A DNA stretch of 64,000 nucleotides from Microgenomates group bacterium Gr01-1014_7 (GTDB taxonomy: Bacteria > Patescibacteriota > Microgenomatia > Daviesbacterales > UBA10151), in NCBI GenBank assembly GCA_007376405.1, contig VMGD01000006.1, positions 19,337 to 83,336 on the forward strand. Direction: 5' to 3'. The notes beneath the pieces are model-generated. The model had not been told where the DNA came from, made no database searches, and saw only the letters and a program-made list of their open reading frames with translations. The translations under genes and the position numbers were made by a program. The stretch's first letter is position 1. The number at the start of each line of letters is the position of its first letter. Below, piece after piece: positions 16,038 to 44,362 of this stretch.

Positions 16038-16628
16038 ATGCTAGAAACAGGAAATTATATTTTCCTTCCATATACTGATGCTGAAAAAGAAATCCTTATT
16101 GCAGATGGAGCTGCAGTTTATTTATTGGAAGGACAATCTATCGGTAGTCAAAGAAGGGGTGGAAGAAGGTTTTGGTCAGATTGGCACAAAGGCCATCCAA
16201 TAGAAGATATAACCTCAAGGATTTATGAAGTAGCTATTTGGCCAAATGATTTCTTTGTCCCCAGAACTTTTAATGAACCCAAACTCGAACAGGAAGAATT
16301 AGTTAGAGTTAATAGGGAGGAAACTCGATTAAGGTTAGGAATTCCAAATTATACAGAAATTCTACCGGAAGCCCCAGAGGTAACTGAAGTTCTATTTAAA
16401 CACTTTGATTTAACCAGAGTCCGTTTACTTGGGGCAAAATATAAAACAAAAGATGGACACTGGACTCACATTAGAACTAATACTGCTATTAATGAATCCG
16501 GTTCCGTCGTCGCCCATGTCGGTTGCTTCCGCGCTGTCTACGGTCCGGACGTCCACGACTGGTATGCCCGCGAGGGCGATCCTGATCTTGCTGCCGCCCG
16601 CTGGGGAGTGAAATTATTAAGGACTTGA
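16038..16628 (+). CDS. DGR1 target (variable) protein; VR at C-terminus
   Basis: 196-aa ORF whose last ~36 codons (16498-16605) are the variable repeat paired with the TR at 16928-17035. Confidence 0.8.
   Translation: MLETGNYIFLPYTDAEKEILIADGAAVYLLEGQSIGSQRRGGRRFWSDWHKGHPIEDITSRIYEVAIWPNDFFVPRTFNEPKLEQEELVRVNREETRLRLGIPNYTEILPEAPEVTEVLFKHFDLTRVRLLGAKYKTKDGHWTHIRTNTAINESGSVVAHVGCFRAVYGPDVHDWYAREGDPDLAAARWGVKLLRT
16498..16605 (+). repeat. DGR1 variable repeat (VR)
   Basis: 108-bp repeat at the 3' end of the target ORF. Differs from the TR at 16 positions: 15 where the TR has A, plus 1 non-A at the 5' edge. Ends in the GC-rich IMH-like gctgccgcccgctggg. Confidence 0.85.
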
Positions 16629-16927
16629 ATTTTGGTTTCTTGGTAATTTTGGATTTTTACTTCTTGGTTTTCCGAATTTTTTCTGATAAATTATCTAAAG
16701 TAGGCAGTGAGGAGTTAAACAAGTTTTTAGCTTCCGCCTATTTCTAGAATCTTTCATAGCCGGAGCCATGCACCAATTGGTTTATGGGGGTGCTTAAGGA
16801 AATTTTACTAGACACTCCGGATATTTCTCTTTGTTCTTGTACCAGACGGTGCAGGGCGGATAAAATACAGTGGAAAGAGCGATCAATCCACAGTGAGTTT
16901 TTGTACGGAGAGATATTCTGTAAACGG

Positions 16928-17035
16928 CCGGTTCCTACGTCGCCAATGTCGGTTACTTCAACGCTGACAACGGTCCGAACGTCAACAACTGGAATGCCCG
17001 CAAGAGCAATCCTAATCTTGCTGCCGCCCGCTGGG
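16928..17035 (+). repeat. DGR1 template repeat (TR)
   Basis: Non-coding copy of the VR. In the VR frame it reads GSYVANVGYFNADNGPNVNNWNARKSNPNLAAARW, with many AAC/AAT codons. Carries A wherever the VR differs. Confidence 0.85.
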
Positions 17036-17059
17036 TAGTTTCTAGAAATTTTAAAAGAT

Positions 17060-17420
17060 TCAGGGTAAGTTTTGCTTGGTGGAACGAATCCATCCGCCAA
17101 GCATCTTGCCTATTTCTTGCAAGTATCCTTGCAGCTCCAAATAATGCTTATCTTTTAAAGCAAGGCTATCTTTGGCAAGTCTTAAAAGAATTTTTAATAA
17201 ATCTAGTTTTATGCTTATTTGTTGTAAGGTAGATATTTTGTTATTTGAGGTTGGAATTGATAAAAGCAGTTCAAAGATTTCCAGGGTTAAATTATCCAAT
17301 TTTTGACCAAGAGTATACTTTTTAGTTTTAGGAAATTTAATGATTAAATAACTTAGGTTTTGATAAAAATCGTAGAGTTTAGCAAAAATCGGGATGTCAA
17401 GGCTAGAGACAGGCAGTGTG
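17060..17420 (-). CDS. avd: DGR1 accessory variability determinant (Avd-like four-helix-bundle protein)
   Basis: Frame open from about 17420 to 17060. Reads ...LDIPIFAKLYDFYQNLSYLIIKFPKTKKYTLGQKLDNLTLEIFELLL...YLELQGYLQEIGKMLGGWIRS, matching the four-helix-bundle/Avd consensus. No canonical in-frame ATG; the ORF caller started it at a TTG (17299). Confidence 0.6.
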
Positions 17421-17428
17421 TGTGTGTG
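17416..17428. repeat. (GT)6.5 dinucleotide microsatellite in the avd1-RT1 divergent intergenic region
   Basis: gtgtgtgtgtgtg lies directly downstream (minus sense) of an out-of-frame ATG (17432-17430). One extra unit would put that ATG in frame with avd1. Confidence 0.9.
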
Positions 17429-17442
17429 GCATTCTTTAAAAG

Positions 17443-18426
17443 ATGATTACTCATAAATCGTATTCTCAACTTACATCAGTAGAAAATTTATTTCAAGCTT
17501 GGAGTGAATTTAAGGTAGGCAAAAGAAAAAGAAAAGATGTGCAAGAGTTTGAAAGAAATCTGGAAGATAATCTATTTGATTTACGTTTTAAATTAAAAAC
17601 CAAAACATACAGACACGGAAACTATTTTGCATTTTATGTGCATGATCCAAAACAAAGGCATATTCATAAAGCATCGGTACAAGATAGGGTAGTTCACCAC
17701 CTGCTTTATCAATATTTATACACCCTATTTGATAGTAGTTTTACTTTTGATTCATATTCATGCAGGTTGGAAAAAGGAACTCATAAAGGGATATTACGGC
17801 TTGAGAATTTTTTGCGGAAAGTGAGCAGAAATTATACAGGGTCTTGCTGGGCGCTAAAACTGGATATAAGGAAGTTTTTTGCAAATGTTGACCACGATAT
17901 TTTAATGGAACTTTTAAAGAGAAAAATTAATGATAAAGATCTTTTGCGGCTGCTTAAAGAAGTAATTGATAGTTTTCCTCAGGGCATTCCTCTTGGTAAT
18001 CTAACATCCCAGATATTTGCCAATATTTATATGAATGAATTAGACCGGTTTATTAAACATAAACTTAAGATCAAATATTATATCCGCTATGCAGATGACT
18101 TTTTAATACTGTCTATTAATAAAAATAATTTGCAGTCTCTAATTAAACCAGTTGATAAATTCCTGCAAGAAAAATTAAAACTCGAACTTCATCCTAAAAA
18201 GATTATCCTAAAGAGATTTGATTGGGGAATAGATTTTCTAGGGTATATTGTTCTGCCTCAGTATATTTTACCAAGGACCAAAACTAAGAAGAGGATGTTT
18301 AGAAAATTAAAAGAGAAATTAGAGTCAGAAAATTTTAATCAGTCGCTGCAATCTTATATTGGGTATTTAAGTCATGCTAATGCATATAATTTATCGAACA
18401 AGATTGCCACGCAACGCTTCCAATGA
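17443..18426 (+). CDS. DGR1 reverse transcriptase
   Basis: 327 aa. RT motifs include IRYADDFLIL (YxDD) and the DGR-diagnostic PLGNLTSQIFANIYM (IGxxxSQ instead of the group II intron QGxxxSP). Confidence 0.9.
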   Translation: MITHKSYSQLTSVENLFQAWSEFKVGKRKRKDVQEFERNLEDNLFDLRFKLKTKTYRHGNYFAFYVHDPKQRHIHKASVQDRVVHHLLYQYLYTLFDSSFTFDSYSCRLEKGTHKGILRLENFLRKVSRNYTGSCWALKLDIRKFFANVDHDILMELLKRKINDKDLLRLLKEVIDSFPQGIPLGNLTSQIFANIYMNELDRFIKHKLKIKYYIRYADDFLILSINKNNLQSLIKPVDKFLQEKLKLELHPKKIILKRFDWGIDFLGYIVLPQYILPRTKTKKRMFRKLKEKLESENFNQSLQSYIGYLSHANAYNLSNKIATQRFQ

Positions 18427-41608: not shown

Positions 41609-42574
41609 ATGAAAAAACTAACTGAAATTGAGCAAAAAAGTAAATCAGGCCTTAAATTGTCACAGGATGAGCTGATCTTTTTATATGAAATAGATTCATC
41701 AATTGAGGGATTTGGATACGGCGATGATCCAAGAGTAAAGGAGCTGCGTTTTCAGAGAAAACCGGAAGAAGATATGCTAATTATTTTTGGTTCCGAGCCG
41801 GACCAGATTGCCGGATCAGCCGGGGGAATCACCGCAAATACCAGAGCATATGTTGGCCCACTGGAAAAAGGTATTTTTGACAAATTTGAACAATTTGGAA
41901 TAGAGCATATTTATACCTCTTTCCCTGAAGGAAAAATAAGAAGGGAAACTGTTGAAATTGGGGGAACAGACTTTAAGCAGATAGCTCAAGAATTAGAGGA
42001 TAAACTTAATATAATAGATACCCTAACTTGGGAGAAAACAGGAGAGATTCTTAAACAGGTTGAGGGCGGATCAGTTCAAATTAGTGCTGAGACTACTCAA
42101 TTTTTAAGGCAACTATTTGAAAGGCAGATCAATGTTTCAGGATATGCTCTAGATATGCTTAAAAATTCGGAATTCACCACCAGTCCCACACCTATAAACA
42201 TAGATACAGTTAGACTAAAAATTTCTGCACTGGACCTTAAGGGTACACCCACTACAGATCAAGTATATGCCAGAGCTAACGAACTAGGACTTGATCTTTG
42301 TCCAGCAGAAGTAGGTCCCCACAAAAGATTTAAAGATACTAATGAACCAATGGGAGATTGGGAATATATTGCTATGAAGCAAATGACTGACCGCGGTGGC
42401 CATCTGGATGTCTTCGTGCTCGGTCGTGATGGCCGTGGTTTGTGGTTGGCTGGCCGTTGGGCGGATCCTGACCATGGGTGGCCTCCCGAGGATGAGATTG
42501 TTTTTCGTCTCCGCAAGTCTGAAACTCAACCACTTAAACCCTCTGGATTCTTTTCCAGATTTTTGAGCCGTTGA
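41609..42574 (+). CDS. DGR2 target (variable) protein; C-terminal CLec-like VR
   Basis: 321 aa. The C-terminal TDRGGHLDVFVLGRDGRGLWLAGRWADPDHGWPPEDEIVFRLRK is the VR. Its frame is open upstream to 41432 without another start codon. Confidence 0.8.
   Translation: MKKLTEIEQKSKSGLKLSQDELIFLYEIDSSIEGFGYGDDPRVKELRFQRKPEEDMLIIFGSEPDQIAGSAGGITANTRAYVGPLEKGIFDKFEQFGIEHIYTSFPEGKIRRETVEIGGTDFKQIAQELEDKLNIIDTLTWEKTGEILKQVEGGSVQISAETTQFLRQLFERQINVSGYALDMLKNSEFTTSPTPINIDTVRLKISALDLKGTPTTDQVYARANELGLDLCPAEVGPHKRFKDTNEPMGDWEYIAMKQMTDRGGHLDVFVLGRDGRGLWLAGRWADPDHGWPPEDEIVFRLRKSETQPLKPSGFFSRFLSR
42386..42516 (+). repeat. DGR2 variable repeat (VR)
   Basis: 131 bp. Differs from the TR (42847-42977) at 20 positions, all with A in the TR. 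Confidence 0.9.
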
Positions 42575-42846
42575 TACTTTGAAACTTTGTTTGAAATTTT
42601 TATATAATTATTACGGATAGGTTGTTTTGAACGGCTACGGCTTTTTGAGGCCTTTCCGGCAAATGTAAATTGAGAACAAGTAAGGTTACGGCTTTGCCTG
42701 GAGTGATCTACATTCTGTCATTAAAAAAAGAAATACTTGGTGTGGTGTGCTTTTGCGGATTCATCCGCGGATAAAATACAGCCTGGCGTCTTCCGCCAGA
42801 TAGTGGATTACACAGGCAGTGAGGTTAGTAGGGCACATCATACATT

Positions 42847-42977
42847 ACTGACCGCGATGGCCATCTGAATGTCTTCAAGCTCAATCGTGATGGCAATGGT
42901 TTGTGGTTGAATGACAATTGGGCGAATCCTGACAATAGGTGGAATCCCGAGAATGAGATTGTTTTTCGTCTCCGAAA
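42847..42977 (+). repeat. DGR2 template repeat (TR)
   Basis: In the VR frame it reads TDRDGHLNVFKLNRDGNGLWLNDNWANPDNRWNPENEIVFRLRN, with eight AAT codons. Confidence 0.9.
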
Positions 42978-43334
42978 CTATTTCTTTCCGCGTCTAACCG
43001 GCGCGGTTTTTTGTAGACCTAAACTTCTCTTCCAGCCCCAAAGCATCTTTCCGATCTCATCCAGCTTAACTGCAATATCCCCATATTGTTTATGGGAAAT
43101 AAGTTTAGCTTCCCAAGCAGTAGAAATTAGGAATTTAATAATATCTACTATAAAAATACAATCGGATAATTTATCTGCCTTTTTCTCTTTTTCGGTAAAA
43201 TATGCAGTATATGATAATTCTAAAAGGTCGAGGAATTTATTTTCTATCCTTGAGCCTGTTGTAAACCGCCCGGACCGGGGAATATGAGGAGAAATATTCA
43301 TCCAAATCAAATATCCTTCCTTGATCCGGTTCAA
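42978..43334 (-). CDS. avd: DGR2 accessory variability determinant (Avd-like four-helix-bundle protein)
   Basis: 118 aa; C-terminal half FLISTAWEAKLISHKQYGDIAVKLDEIGKMLWGWKRS matches the four-helix-bundle/Avd family. Its stop codon abuts the TR end. Antisense to the TR and RT, as in DGR1. Confidence 0.7.
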   Translation of the reverse strand: MNRIKEGYLIWMNISPHIPRSGRFTTGSRIENKFLDLLELSYTAYFTEKEKKADKLSDCIFIVDIIKFLISTAWEAKLISHKQYGDIAVKLDEIGKMLWGWKRSLGLQKTAPVRRGKK

Positions 43335-43351
43335 TATGGAAGATTTTTCAT

Positions 43352-43370
43352 GAGAGAGAGAGAGAGAGAG
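43352..43370. repeat. (GA)9.5 dinucleotide microsatellite at the 5' end of DGR2 RT
   Basis: tgagagagagagagagagag directly follows an ATG at 43350. The RT reading frame runs through the tract but is +1 relative to that ATG. Confidence 0.9.
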
Positions 43371-43495
43371 TTAGGGAGCTTTTCCATGCCAGATATAATT
43401 CTATCATTTCACTGGAAAATTTACTGGAATCATGGCATGAATTTTTAAGAGGTAAGAAAAACAGAAAAGATATTGCAACTTTTTCAATCCGGTTT

Positions 43496-44362
43496 ATGGA
43501 TAATGTCCTTATTTTGAACGAGGAACTCTTAAAAAAGACATATCAGCACGGAGGTTACTATGCTTTTAAAATAAACGACCCGAAACCAAGGAATATCCAC
43601 AAGGCCAATGTAAGGGATCGGATTGTCCACCATGCCATCTTTAGAATTCTTTACCCTTACTTTGAGAAAAAATTTATCTTTGATTCATACTCCTGCAGAT
43701 TAAATAAAGGCACCCATAAATCTATTTACAGATTCAGGGATTTATCAAGGAAAGGGTCTGTAAATAATACAAAACCCCTTTGGTTATTAAAAGGAGACAT
43801 CAGGAAGTTTTTTGCCAATATTGACCACGATATTTTAAAAAATATTTTACAAAGATATATTATTGATGAAGAAATTTTGTGGTTGATGGGAGAAATTATT
43901 GATAGTTTCCGGCCTGGTCTGCCACTTGGCAATGTAACCAGTCAGCTTTTTATTAATATTTATTTAAATGAATTTGACCAGTTTGTTAAACGGGATTTGA
44001 AAGTTCACAGTTATATCCGATATTGTGATGATTTTGTGATTATTCACACGGATAAAGTTTATTTAGAAGGACTTATCCCTAAAATATCACAGTTTTTAGA
44101 AGATGAATTAAAACTTTCACTTCATCCGGATAAAGTTTTTATTAAAAGACTCTCTTTGGGAGTGGATTTTCTGGGATGGGTACATTTTTCCCATCATCGG
44201 GTTTTAAGAACTGCTACCAAAAAGAGGATGTTCAAAAGGCTCAAGGGTAATCAACCTAACGAGACGCTAGCCTCTTATTTGGGCTTACTGAAACATGGCG
44301 ATACCTATAAACTTGTAAAAAAATTAAGGATGATAACTACGGAAAATGATTTAAATCATTGA
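43496..44362 (+). CDS. DGR2 reverse transcriptase (intact ORF from an internal ATG; conserved N-terminal region continues upstream to about 43325)
   Basis: RPGLPLGNVTSQLFINIYL (DGR IGxxxSQ motif) and IRYCDDFVII (YxDD). Upstream in-frame codons ...FHARYNSIISLENLLESWHEFLRGKKNRK align with the N-terminus of RT1 (THKSYSQLTSVENLFQAWSEFKVGKRKRK) but lack an in-frame ATG in the reference sequence. Confidence 0.8.
   Translation: MDNVLILNEELLKKTYQHGGYYAFKINDPKPRNIHKANVRDRIVHHAIFRILYPYFEKKFIFDSYSCRLNKGTHKSIYRFRDLSRKGSVNNTKPLWLLKGDIRKFFANIDHDILKNILQRYIIDEEILWLMGEIIDSFRPGLPLGNVTSQLFINIYLNEFDQFVKRDLKVHSYIRYCDDFVIIHTDKVYLEGLIPKISQFLEDELKLSLHPDKVFIKRLSLGVDFLGWVHFSHHRVLRTATKKRMFKRLKGNQPNETLASYLGLLKHGDTYKLVKKLRMITTENDLNH

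Follow-up and report, generated by a model that had tools for sequence, protein, structure and literature searches.

The closest described system to the elements treated here is the template RNA of the phage BPP-1 diversity-generating retroelement (DGR), which is made up of the 3' end of avd, the template repeat (TR) and a 140-nt Spacer (Sp) and is represented in Rfam as RF03022 (Phage_DGR, formerly the RT-10 motif). In its ribonucleoprotein (RNP), studied by cryo-EM, Sp A56 primes cDNA synthesis in cis (Handa et al., bioRxiv 10.1101/2023.10.23.563531). Sp47-56 pairs with TR118-129 beside the first template base, G117, and 2 nt further on the 12 nt of Sp59-70 pair with the avd segment just 5' of TR and form the cPRT Stop duplex, with TR looped out between the template:primer and stop duplexes (10.1101/2023.10.23.563531). 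Next come a short stem-loop, A80 and A81 with their A-minor contacts, a 13-nt single-stranded Thumb Ring and a stem-loop that binds the reverse transcriptase (RT); an Avd-binding stem-loop lies directly after TR, and the phage needs G57 (10.1101/2023.10.23.563531). Handa et al. found Avd-binding stem-loops after TR in 207 of 278 DGRs, and their survey, which covered 40 nt upstream and 100 nt downstream of TR, described phage-like downstream elements in DGRs of the candidate phyla radiation (CPR) (10.1101/2023.10.23.563531). Wu et al. 2018 and Roux et al. 2021 contain no treatment of RNA structure. Here, we analyse two DGR cassettes, DGR1 and DGR2, on a 64,000-nt stretch of contig VMGD01000006.1 from Microgenomates group bacterium Gr01-1014_7 (the window, within which all positions are counted). 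We consider it likely that both cassettes encode a separate + strand template RNA of ~400 nt, whose 5' domain is the RT-recruiting and self-priming part and a circularly permuted equivalent of the phage RNA. A literature search, made without Paul et al. 2017 and the journal version of Handa et al., found no description of this 5' domain or of such a permutation.

The original prediction, made from the sequence of the window, had named two short boxes shared by both cassettes upstream of TR, and both are real. The first, the 15-mer GCGGATAAAATACAG, occurs at exactly two places in the window, each time on the + strand (16856-16870 and 42767-42781, 2 nt from where it had been placed); the copies end 57 nt before TR1 (16928) and 62 nt before TR2 (42844). 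The second, CAGTGAG, follows in each cassette at 16891 and 42817, that is 20 and 35 nt past the 15-mer. At up to two mismatches the 15-mer has 4 matches in the window against 0.14 expected from shuffles, and the composite ATAAAATNCAR-N12-42-YRGTG matches these two sites only (0.16 expected). The 10-mer GGCAGTGAGG is also found in just two copies (16703 and 42815), at non-equivalent positions. Judged by their proteins, DGR1 and DGR2 are ancient paralogues, with 50% identity between the RTs, 30% between the Avds and no relation between the targets. The spacers of the two cassettes are otherwise unalignable, and a global alignment misaligns even the boxes. Since the cassettes are so deeply diverged and their spacers do not align, 15 identical nucleotides point to selection rather than to a recent duplication.

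Homologous loci (numbered with the prefix L) were collected by an RT-anchored scan of one genome per species, which gave 80 loci, all from metagenome-assembled genomes of CPR/Patescibacteria and with RT identities of 48-69%. Pairs of TR and variable repeat (VR), called by self-BLAST with an adenine-bias filter, were found in 68 sequences, and the order VR, spacer of ~300-450 nt, TR (+), ~400 nt, RT (+) is kept in 66 of the 80 loci. Neither the exact 15-mer nor the exact GGCAGTGAGG occurs in any of the 80. Absence from homologous DGRs, which had been named as grounds for refutation, thus applies to the exact 15-mer but not to its degenerate form. What recurs in other CPR DGRs, where the original prediction had expected the box itself, is a degenerate motif in its structural context: ATAAAATNCA ... 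RGTG is nearly invariant, and the 130 nt before each TR follow a common plan of hairpin, (R)AATAAAATWCAR, variable hairpin and YRGTGA. A second subgroup of loci has an additional hairpin within the strand between the first two helices of this plan (J2/3, below). The occurrence of the same architecture twice within one 64-kb window would also fit a functionless leftover of cassette duplication within the genome. We give this explanation practically no credence, because protein identity is down to 50% and 30% and the spacers are otherwise unalignable, and because motif and fold recur, with compensatory changes, in at least 65 independent loci of many CPR lineages, a covariation that already refutes it; that the homologous loci are assembly duplicates is excluded by their RT identities of 48-69%.

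We show here that the boxes are conserved unpaired strands of a folded RNA domain of ~115 bases directly 5' of TR. In an alignment of 36 loci made with MAFFT from sequence only (A3), the core ATAAAAT.CA is invariant or nearly so and GTG is invariant. RNAalifold folds this alignment into a three-way junction, in which P1 (12 bp) closes the domain and P2 (at least 4 bp) and P3 (5+2 bp) form the two arms, with compensatory changes in 22 of the 23 pairs. Paired cells make up 92.7%, compared to 55.0 +/- 1.3% after shuffling (0 of 500 shuffles reach the observed value) and 43-49% with the partners slid, and the covariation score is 1.01 against 0.18-0.24 in controls. In P1, 95% of the cells are paired and 11 of 12 pairs are compensatory; the same holds for all 4 modelled pairs of P2 and for every modelled pair of P3. 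The first pair of P3 joins the last G of the 15-mer to the C of CAGTGAG and is GC in 21 sequences and AU in 11. Because of this pair the boxes are the junction strands J2/3 and J3/1: the 15-mer is J2/3 plus the first base of P3, and CAGTGAG is the last base of P3 plus J3/1. Joint structure and covariance modelling of the two TR-flanking regions, which had been proposed along with the boxes, yields a common covarying fold in both cassettes, made up as follows.

16819..16830 (+): DGR1, P1 5' strand, GGATATTTCTCT, pairs with 16907-16918 (probability 0.69-0.98 in the full-length fold)
16835..16856 (+): DGR1, P2 hairpin, with an 8-9 bp stem and loop AGAC in the minimum free energy (MFE) structure
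16857..16869 (+): DGR1, J2/3 single strand, CGGATAAAATACA, core of the 15-mer
16870..16891 (+): DGR1, P3 hairpin, GTGGA ... TCCAC
16892..16906 (+): DGR1, J3/1, AGTGAGTTTTTGTAC, remainder of CAGTGAG
16907..16918 (+): DGR1, P1 3' strand, GGAGAGATATTC, 9 nt before TR1
42740..42751 (+): DGR2, P1 5' strand, GTGTGGTGTGCT, 12 bp with 42832-42843 including 3 G.U (probability 0.92-0.98)
42755..42768 (+): DGR2, P2 hairpin, GCGGA-TTCA-TCCGC
42769..42780 (+): DGR2, J2/3 single strand, GGATAAAATACA, core of the 15-mer
42781..42817 (+): DGR2, P3, closing stem GCCTG / CAGGC with an extended branched interior (centroid fold)
42783-42799: DGR2, hairpin CTGGCG-TCTTC-CGCCAG, a local alternative to the P3 closing stem
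42818..42831 (+): DGR2, J3/1, AGTGAGGTTAGTAG
42832..42843 (+): DGR2, P1 3' strand, GGCACATCATAC, abuts TR2

Four hairpins had been named around the two TRs, and all are present within 1-2 nt of their predicted places. The two in the DGR2 spacer differ in standing, as 42755-42768 is the conserved helix P2, whereas 42783-42799 is not conserved and competes with the closing stem of P3. The supposition that the elements are structural and belong to a + strand RNA that contains TR is borne out by the covarying helices. G.U pairs are frequent, and the fold z-scores are -2.7 (DGR1) and -4.0 (DGR2) on the + strand compared to -0.03 and -1.8 on the - strand; because G.U pairs are common and only the + strand folds strongly, the junction is a feature of the + strand RNA. 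Across the family the 3' end of P1 lies 0-9 nt (mode 4) before TR.

A covariance model of the domain, R1 (108 positions, 21 pairs), matches the window at E<=10 only at 16806-16924 and 42727-42849. Searched with it, the 80 loci yield 67 elements, every one on the + strand and ending at TR; among them are elements of the second subgroup, of loci outside the seed alignment and of loci without a previously detected TR. When the 67 elements are aligned to R1, 94.5% of the cells are paired, ACT stands just before P1 in 63-65 of them, the GTG of J3/1 is kept in 66-67, and ATAAAAT.CA in J2/3 is again nearly invariant. On BPP-1 the model has no match. For the converse test, metagenomes were scanned with the exact pattern. 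Among the 80 matches listed, 8 fit R1, a homologous RT lies near 7 of these 8, and all five R1-positive metagenome loci examined for TR carry an A-biased TR abutting the element. The remaining 72 of the 80 listed matches have no fold and, one distant exception aside, no RT; since these are chance matches, the sequence pattern alone is not diagnostic. Two loci are unusual in their arrangement. L149 (1586-1808), one of these five metagenome loci, has RNA element and TR inverted relative to avd and RT, and L084 (5324-5566) has element, TR and VR with no RT detectable within its 10.9-kb locus. Because of this inversion and this locus without RT, the non-coding RNA (ncRNA) gene behaves as a separable module.

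A fourth helix spans TR. A strand of ~11 nt before P1 that ends in ACT (a1) is complementary to a strand (a2) consisting of the last 3 nt of TR, AGT, and 8-12 nt past the TR/VR homology. The strands in the window are these.

16806..16816 (+): DGR1, a1, TACTAGACACT, with ACT at 16814-16 and a 2-nt linker at 16817-18
17037..17045 (+): DGR1, a2, AGTTTCTAG, starts at the last 3 nt of TR1 and pairs with 16808-16816 with one C.U mismatch
42727..42737 (+): DGR2, a1, AAAGAAATACT, with ACT at 42735-37 and linker TG at 42738-39
42977..42987 (+): DGR2, a2, ACTATTTCTTT, one C.C mismatch with a1

Written as a1 / a2, the pairs read CTAGAcACT / AGTtTCTAG in DGR1, AAAGAAATAcT / AcTATTTCTTT in DGR2, GCAAGACACT / AGTGTCTTGC in L010 and AAGAAGATACT / AGTATCTTCTT in L026. 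RNAduplex on long flanks gave over-extended, noisy duplexes and was replaced by a comparison of the short a1 with partners from its own and from foreign loci: the mean duplex energy is -12.3 kcal/mol with the own partner and -8.1 with foreign ones (permutation p<1e-4). In a gapless alignment with each side anchored independently, 76.1% of the cells are paired, against 59.2% after shuffling (0 of 500) and 35-47% after sliding, and the covariation score is 0.43 compared to 0.13-0.17 in controls. P1, P2, P3 and a1:a2 are hence all RNA pairings under selection. Exactly 2 nt link a1 to P1, and only 1 of the 67 elements forms the pair that would come next. Thus, TR is closed into a loop by two neighbouring helices, with their partner strands contiguous except for these 2 nt. 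The MFE structure of the full-length DGR2 RNA (42615-43012) holds a1:a2, P1-P3 and the terminator hairpin together, with a1:a2 pair probabilities of 0.88-0.96 over 8 of 11 positions, of 0.73-0.96 at all positions but the C.C mismatch and the terminal U-A pair next to it, and of 0.14 at that terminal pair.

The edge of this helix coincides with the limit of mutagenesis. Among 47 loci examined, A-to-N changes reach position -1 from AGT in 14 and position -2 in 9, and TR/VR homology stops at or just past AGT; in DGR2 the last A-to-N change lies 2 nt before ACT. Since changes and homology both run up to AGT, cDNA initiation maps to the a1:a2 edge. The TR 3' end is thereby paired with a distal strand beside the first copied base, as expected of a template:primer duplex and borne out by the covariation of a1:a2, and P1 provides a second helix 5' of TR whose other strand begins 2 nt past the primer strand, as expected of a stop duplex. 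Two irregularities were noted at the same edge. The base just 5' of AGT is T (or C) in TR where VR has G (17036, L003, L010, L021, L040, L009 and L026), and TR of DGR2 has ACT where VR2 and most relatives have AGT (42978). Such non-adenine differences are reminiscent of the asymmetry between IMH (initiation of mutagenic homing) and IMH* that sets the direction of homing.

Outside the fold, the transcript ends can be predicted from promoter-like sites, a leader and post-TR hairpins.

16664..16692 (+): DGR1, promoter-like site TTGGTT-17-TAAATT, best sigma-70-like match upstream of the fold
16703..16712 (+): DGR1, GGCAGTGAGG box near the predicted RNA 5' end
16766..16787 (+): DGR1, leader hairpin P0, followed by GGGTG
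17074..17102 (+): DGR1, post-TR hairpin GCTTGGTGG / CCGCCAAGC, 9-bp stem and 11-nt loop, in the 3' end of antisense avd1
42579..42608 (+): DGR2, promoter-like site TTGAAA-18-TATAAT, 11 of 12 consensus matches
42677..42701 (+): DGR2, leader hairpin P0, followed by GGAGTGA
42988..43012 (+): DGR2, post-TR hairpin CCGCG / CGCGG (42988-43006) with T6 (43007-12), in the last codons of antisense avd2

The -10 elements end 124 nt (DGR1) and 129 nt (DGR2) before the T of ACT. Across the loci the best promoter-like site lies 115-140 nt before ACT in subgroup A, which holds DGR1 and DGR2, and 58-79 nt before it in the second subgroup. These distances bear on a DNA-level explanation, in which GATAAAAT within the 15-mer would be a -10 box, the TR transcript would start ~50 nt before TR and the boxes would mark its 5' boundary. 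The box is A/T-rich and invariant, and TAAAAT fits the -10 consensus in 5 of 6 positions. However, the promoter scan calls no site there, no -35 element is found 16-18 bp upstream, where the covarying P2 hairpin lies, and better promoter-like sites stand at a conserved ~125 nt upstream of a1. Above all, the P1 5' strand and a1, both upstream of the 15-mer, covary with partners downstream of it, so that the TR RNA must begin upstream of the box. We therefore regard a sigma-70 promoter in the 15-mer as very unlikely, and the idea that the boxes delimit the RNA was given up on the same grounds.

P0 has compensatory changes in 12 of 12 predicted pairs (RNAalifold on 30 leaders) and is flanked by ..GAG and GAGTG. 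In the leader of DGR2 the motif (G)GYTACGGCTTT occurs twice (42634-42645 and 42686-42697), and it recurs in leader hairpin loops of L072, L071, L036, L053, L079 and L010. A sub-threshold match to Rfam RT-9 (42675-42738), which scores 20 bits where the gathering score is 46, overlaps P0 of DGR2 and the second copy of this motif. The two copies of GGCAGTGAGG were rejected as positional homologues, as the DGR1 copy lies at the predicted RNA 5' end and the DGR2 copy is J3/1. AGGCAGTGAR is conserved 8-12 nt after the -10 element in L003, L008, L016, L002, L006 and L044, and since these are the closest relatives of DGR1, the copy at 16703 is explained.

At the other end, a hairpin follows TR in ~52 of 68 loci, ~43 of them with a T-run; this latter count is the sum of 27 found by script and ~16 A-tract/T-tract stems, similar to bidirectional terminators, that were judged by eye. 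The proposal that hairpin and T-run of DGR2 reflect a discrete, terminated TR RNA is in line with this distribution. The hairpin at 42988-43012 agrees with the intrinsic-terminator consensus in a terminator scan (7 pairs, 6 of them GC, a 5-nt loop and TTTTTT), and we regard it as terminator-like and as a candidate Avd-binding stem-loop. The DGR1 hairpin, which lies 1 nt from its predicted place and had been paired with that of DGR2 as a shared element, is common only to L003, L008, L016 and, imperfectly, L012. It stands 35 nt further on rather than directly after TR, the conserved Avd codons MLGGW lie antisense to its 3' arm, its tail TCTTGCCT has no T-run, and no terminator was called in 16400-17600. 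Being restricted to a subgroup and lacking the T-run, it was rejected as a conserved terminator.

When compared to the phage, both RNAs are DGR template RNAs that go with RT and Avd. In both, TR is looped between adjacent helices with contiguous partner strands separated by 2 nt; one helix begins at the TR 3' end, where cDNA is initiated, and the other has a strand of 12 nt and lies just 5' of TR. Both also have a stem-loop, an A-rich single strand of ~13 nt (GAA.A...UACA in register) and a longer stem-loop, and in both the TR-side strand is immediately followed by a GC stem-loop. The succession of P2, J2/3 (an A-rich 13-mer that is invariant) and P3 corresponds in order to the phage stem-loop, single strand and RT-binding stem-loop. 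Of the 13 positions of J2/3 GAAUAAAAUACAG, 8 agree, without a shift in register, with phage GAACACGUUACAC and the RF03022 consensus aAAuACAuuacua, a resemblance that is suggestive only. The post-TR stem-loop agrees with that of the survey by Handa et al. The main difference is that the predicted recognition and priming domain is 5' of TR in the CPR RNA, whereas that of the phage is 3'. The chain break of the CPR RNA falls between post-TR hairpin and primer strand, as if phage Sp34-46 had been cut, and the free ends of the phage RNA are joined by J3/1. Furthermore, the phage RNA is embedded in an avd-TR-brt transcript, while the CPR RNA has its own predicted promoter and terminator, and avd is antisense in the CPR. 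Since the cyclic order matches the phage while the chain ends differ, the relation would be one of circular permutation.

If so, the CPR RNA would read, 5' to 3', promoter, a leader of ~110 nt with P0 and others, a1 ending in ACU, a 2-nt linker, P1 5' strand, P2, J2/3 (CGAAUAAAAUACA), P3, J3/1 (RGUGA..GAU), P1 3' strand, TR, a2, GC hairpin and, in DGR2 and most relatives, a U-run. The helix a1:a2 would be the template:primer duplex and the 2-nt linker the counterpart of Sp57-58. It seems plausible that cDNA is cis-primed from the 2'-OH of the U in ACU, or of an adjacent nucleotide, and starts on the base 5' of AGU, and that P1, as the cPRT Stop duplex, halts cDNA at the 5' end of TR. P2 would correspond to the short stem-loop, J2/3 to the adenosines of the A-minor contacts together with the single-stranded Thumb Ring that RT reads, and P3 to the RT-binding stem-loop, and the post-TR hairpin could bind Avd and double as terminator. 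The two RNAs would then be homologous rather than convergent.

Several points weigh against this interpretation. Priming, termination and protein contacts are deduced from topology. The primer strand ends in ACU in the CPR compared to GUCA(-G) in the phage, with no conserved G as the next nucleotide, and neither J3/1 (invariant GUG) nor the ~110-nt leader has a phage counterpart. In the full-length DGR1 RNA the MFE structure has P1-P3, but not a1:a2, the fourth pair of a1:a2 is often mismatched, and a C.C mismatch falls inside ACU:ACU in DGR2, L015 and L032. Four loci have GGT in VR opposite the AGT of TR, so that the initiation register may differ by one base. After TR, DGR1 and its closest relatives lack a terminator-like T-run. 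RF03022 (gathering score 50 bits) matches neither the window nor 16 related loci, and relaxing the search of the TR regions to E<=10 does not change this, while the BPP-1 control scores 104.7 bits; because this phage model is unmatched, the elements may be analogous rather than homologous to those of the phage. In the CPR the interval between TR and RT, where RF03022 would sit, holds antisense avd. Finally, Handa et al. assign the CPR stop duplex differently, downstream of TR, an assignment that cannot agree with ours since both strands of P1 lie upstream of TR.

It might also be that the fold is real in the TR RNA but serves another role, such as stability or processing, hand-off of cDNA or riboswitch-like sensing, with the priming elements elsewhere, for example in antisense-avd RNA. 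Invariant J2/3 and J3/1 strands in a three-way junction do resemble ligand- or protein-binding pockets, J3/1 and the leader are without phage counterpart, loci of the DGR1 type have no T-run, so their RNA may extend into antisense avd, and Handa et al. place the CPR elements downstream of TR. However, a1:a2 ends exactly at the limit of A-mutagenesis and homology and 2 nt from P1, which is the priming geometry of the phage. In most loci the terminator-like hairpin leaves ~30-50 nt 3' of TR, where a phage-like spacer would take 140 nt, and the downstream sequence is constrained as Avd coding. We hold such another role to be unlikely, and a self-priming, RT-recruiting 5' domain remains the reading we prefer.

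In its linear order of a1, priming nucleotide, recognition domain, template and a2, the predicted RNA would correspond to a retron ncRNA. Retron ncRNAs likewise have a 5' inverted-repeat strand, a priming nucleotide, RT-recognition hairpins, a template and a 3' inverted-repeat strand, and they share with the CPR RNA the predicted cis-priming from an internal 2'-OH by an a1/a2 helix and an autonomous ncRNA gene beside RT. Weinberg et al. 2017 (PMC5737381) described the structured motifs RT-1 to RT-19 beside bacterial RT genes and speculated that some serve DGRs. In the window and 16 related loci no Rfam 15 family, RT-1 to RT-19 included, matches at gathering score; permissive searches give RT-9 in the DGR2 leader only, which is not in the three-way junction. 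Given that many RT-associated motifs were suggested as possible retrons (PMC5737381) and that the linear order is the same, the element might be a retron-type ncRNA (msr-msd) that makes multicopy single-stranded DNA (msDNA) and is not a DGR template RNA. This is hardly credible, since the template is a TR with a cognate A-to-N VR at the 3' end of a protein gene, a bAvd-family gene flanks the RT, and the conserved nucleotides are ACU, with no branching G after a1. Instead of a conserved branching G the CPR RNA has ACU and a variable 2-nt linker, its template is a protein-coding-like TR with adenine-specific mutagenesis, and its RT belongs to a DGR clade with Avd, the product being presumably a homing cDNA and not msDNA. 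Thus, the branching G, the retron-clade RT and the absence of a VR/TR pair that characterize retron ncRNAs are not found here. For the CPR as a whole (DGR clade 2), we lean slightly towards the view that the DGR RNA is circularly permuted, follows the retron order and comes from an autonomous ncRNA gene of ~400 nt that is portable and has a promoter and terminator to itself. Its portability is in line with the inverted ncRNA gene of L149.

The genes around these RNAs identify both cassettes as DGRs with one common layout.

16038-16628 (+): DGR1, target gene, with VR1 at 16498-16609
16928-17039 (+): DGR1, TR1
17060 to ~17400 (-): DGR1, avd1
17443-18426 (+): DGR1, RT1
41609-42574 (+): DGR2, target gene, with VR2 at 42383-42516
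42844-42977 (+): DGR2, TR2
42978-43334 (-): DGR2, avd2
~43376-44362 (+): DGR2, RT2

Pfam matches to bAvd and RVT_1 confirm avd and RT. TR1 and VR1 form a 112-nt repeat of 85% identity with A in TR at 15 of 17 mismatches, and TR2 and VR2 a 134-nt repeat with A in TR at 20 of 21 mismatches on the + strand. Because the mismatches carry A in TR on this strand, the template RNA is + sense. A TR and a cognate VR with adenine-specific differences thus stand beside a DGR-type RT and Avd in both cassettes, and likewise in 66 related loci, which places these RNAs in the class of DGR template RNAs.

The divergent avd/RT zone has features of its own. The conserved N-terminus of RT2 (ELFHARYNS..., which aligns with residues 1-9 of RT1) lacks a start codon in frame (43350-43380), and the sole ATG upstream, at 43350, is 2 nt out of frame across a (GA)10 tract; with one GA unit lost, this ATG would fuse in frame. 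In the mechanical list of open reading frames RT2 begins at 43496, which drops ~40 conserved residues. Similarly, avd1 (17380-17407, -) has no ATG, GTG or TTG near the homologous N-terminus, where the frame reads ...SSLDIPIFAKLYDFY, and may be translated from a non-canonical codon, ATC or ATT for instance. Repeats of (GT)n or (GA)n/(CT)n with 6-28 units lie in this zone in 17 of 68 CPR DGR loci, and these are 17 of just 24 such repeats in the DNA of all loci. In the window they are found at 17408-17421 and 43351-43370; others are in L002, L003, L006, L007, L012, L016, L019, L036, L053, L060, L065, L070, L071, L072 and L075. Since repeat length varies, this suggests a slipped-strand on/off switch of RT or Avd expression.

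Two further elements lie between VR and the promoter-like sites. A hairpin TCTGGA-TTCTTT-TCCAGA (42542-42559), followed by TTTTTGAG, stands 26 nt past VR2, just inside the end of the target reading frame. In the Bordetella DGR, IMH is followed by a GC-rich inverted repeat/cruciform; the DGR2 hairpin is placed alike, or may instead terminate transcription of the target gene. Units of the form YTTRR (CTTGG, CTTTG, CTTAA) form arrays of 3-5 with 7-9 nt spacing that take up the first ~100 nt after VR, just before the TR-RNA promoter, seen at 16623-16670 and ~42575-42600 and in many loci, among them L072, L041, L079, L071, L026 and L060. The units may bind a protein, act as an UP-like promoter element or belong to the homing site.

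CPR DGRs are among the most numerous hypermutation systems in nature, and to our knowledge none has been reconstituted so far. The analysis supplies a probable complete template RNA with its ends, helices, invariant strands and predicted priming nucleotide, and a covariance model that locates TRs directly. The finding is a new structural variant of a known retroelement RNA. If our interpretation is true, the RNP architecture solved for the phage is conserved while the connectivity of the RNA is free, the chain having been re-threaded with its three-dimensional logic kept, and the priming topologies of DGRs and retrons are linked. It would also account for the antisense avd between TR and RT in this clade. 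Current surveys that seek a spacer downstream of TR would then pick the wrong RNA as the functional one in the environmental DGR clade that is largest, and the published assumption that the functional RNA of CPR DGRs lies downstream of TR would have to be revised. Such a permutation would also aid the engineering of compact DGR mutagenesis tools.

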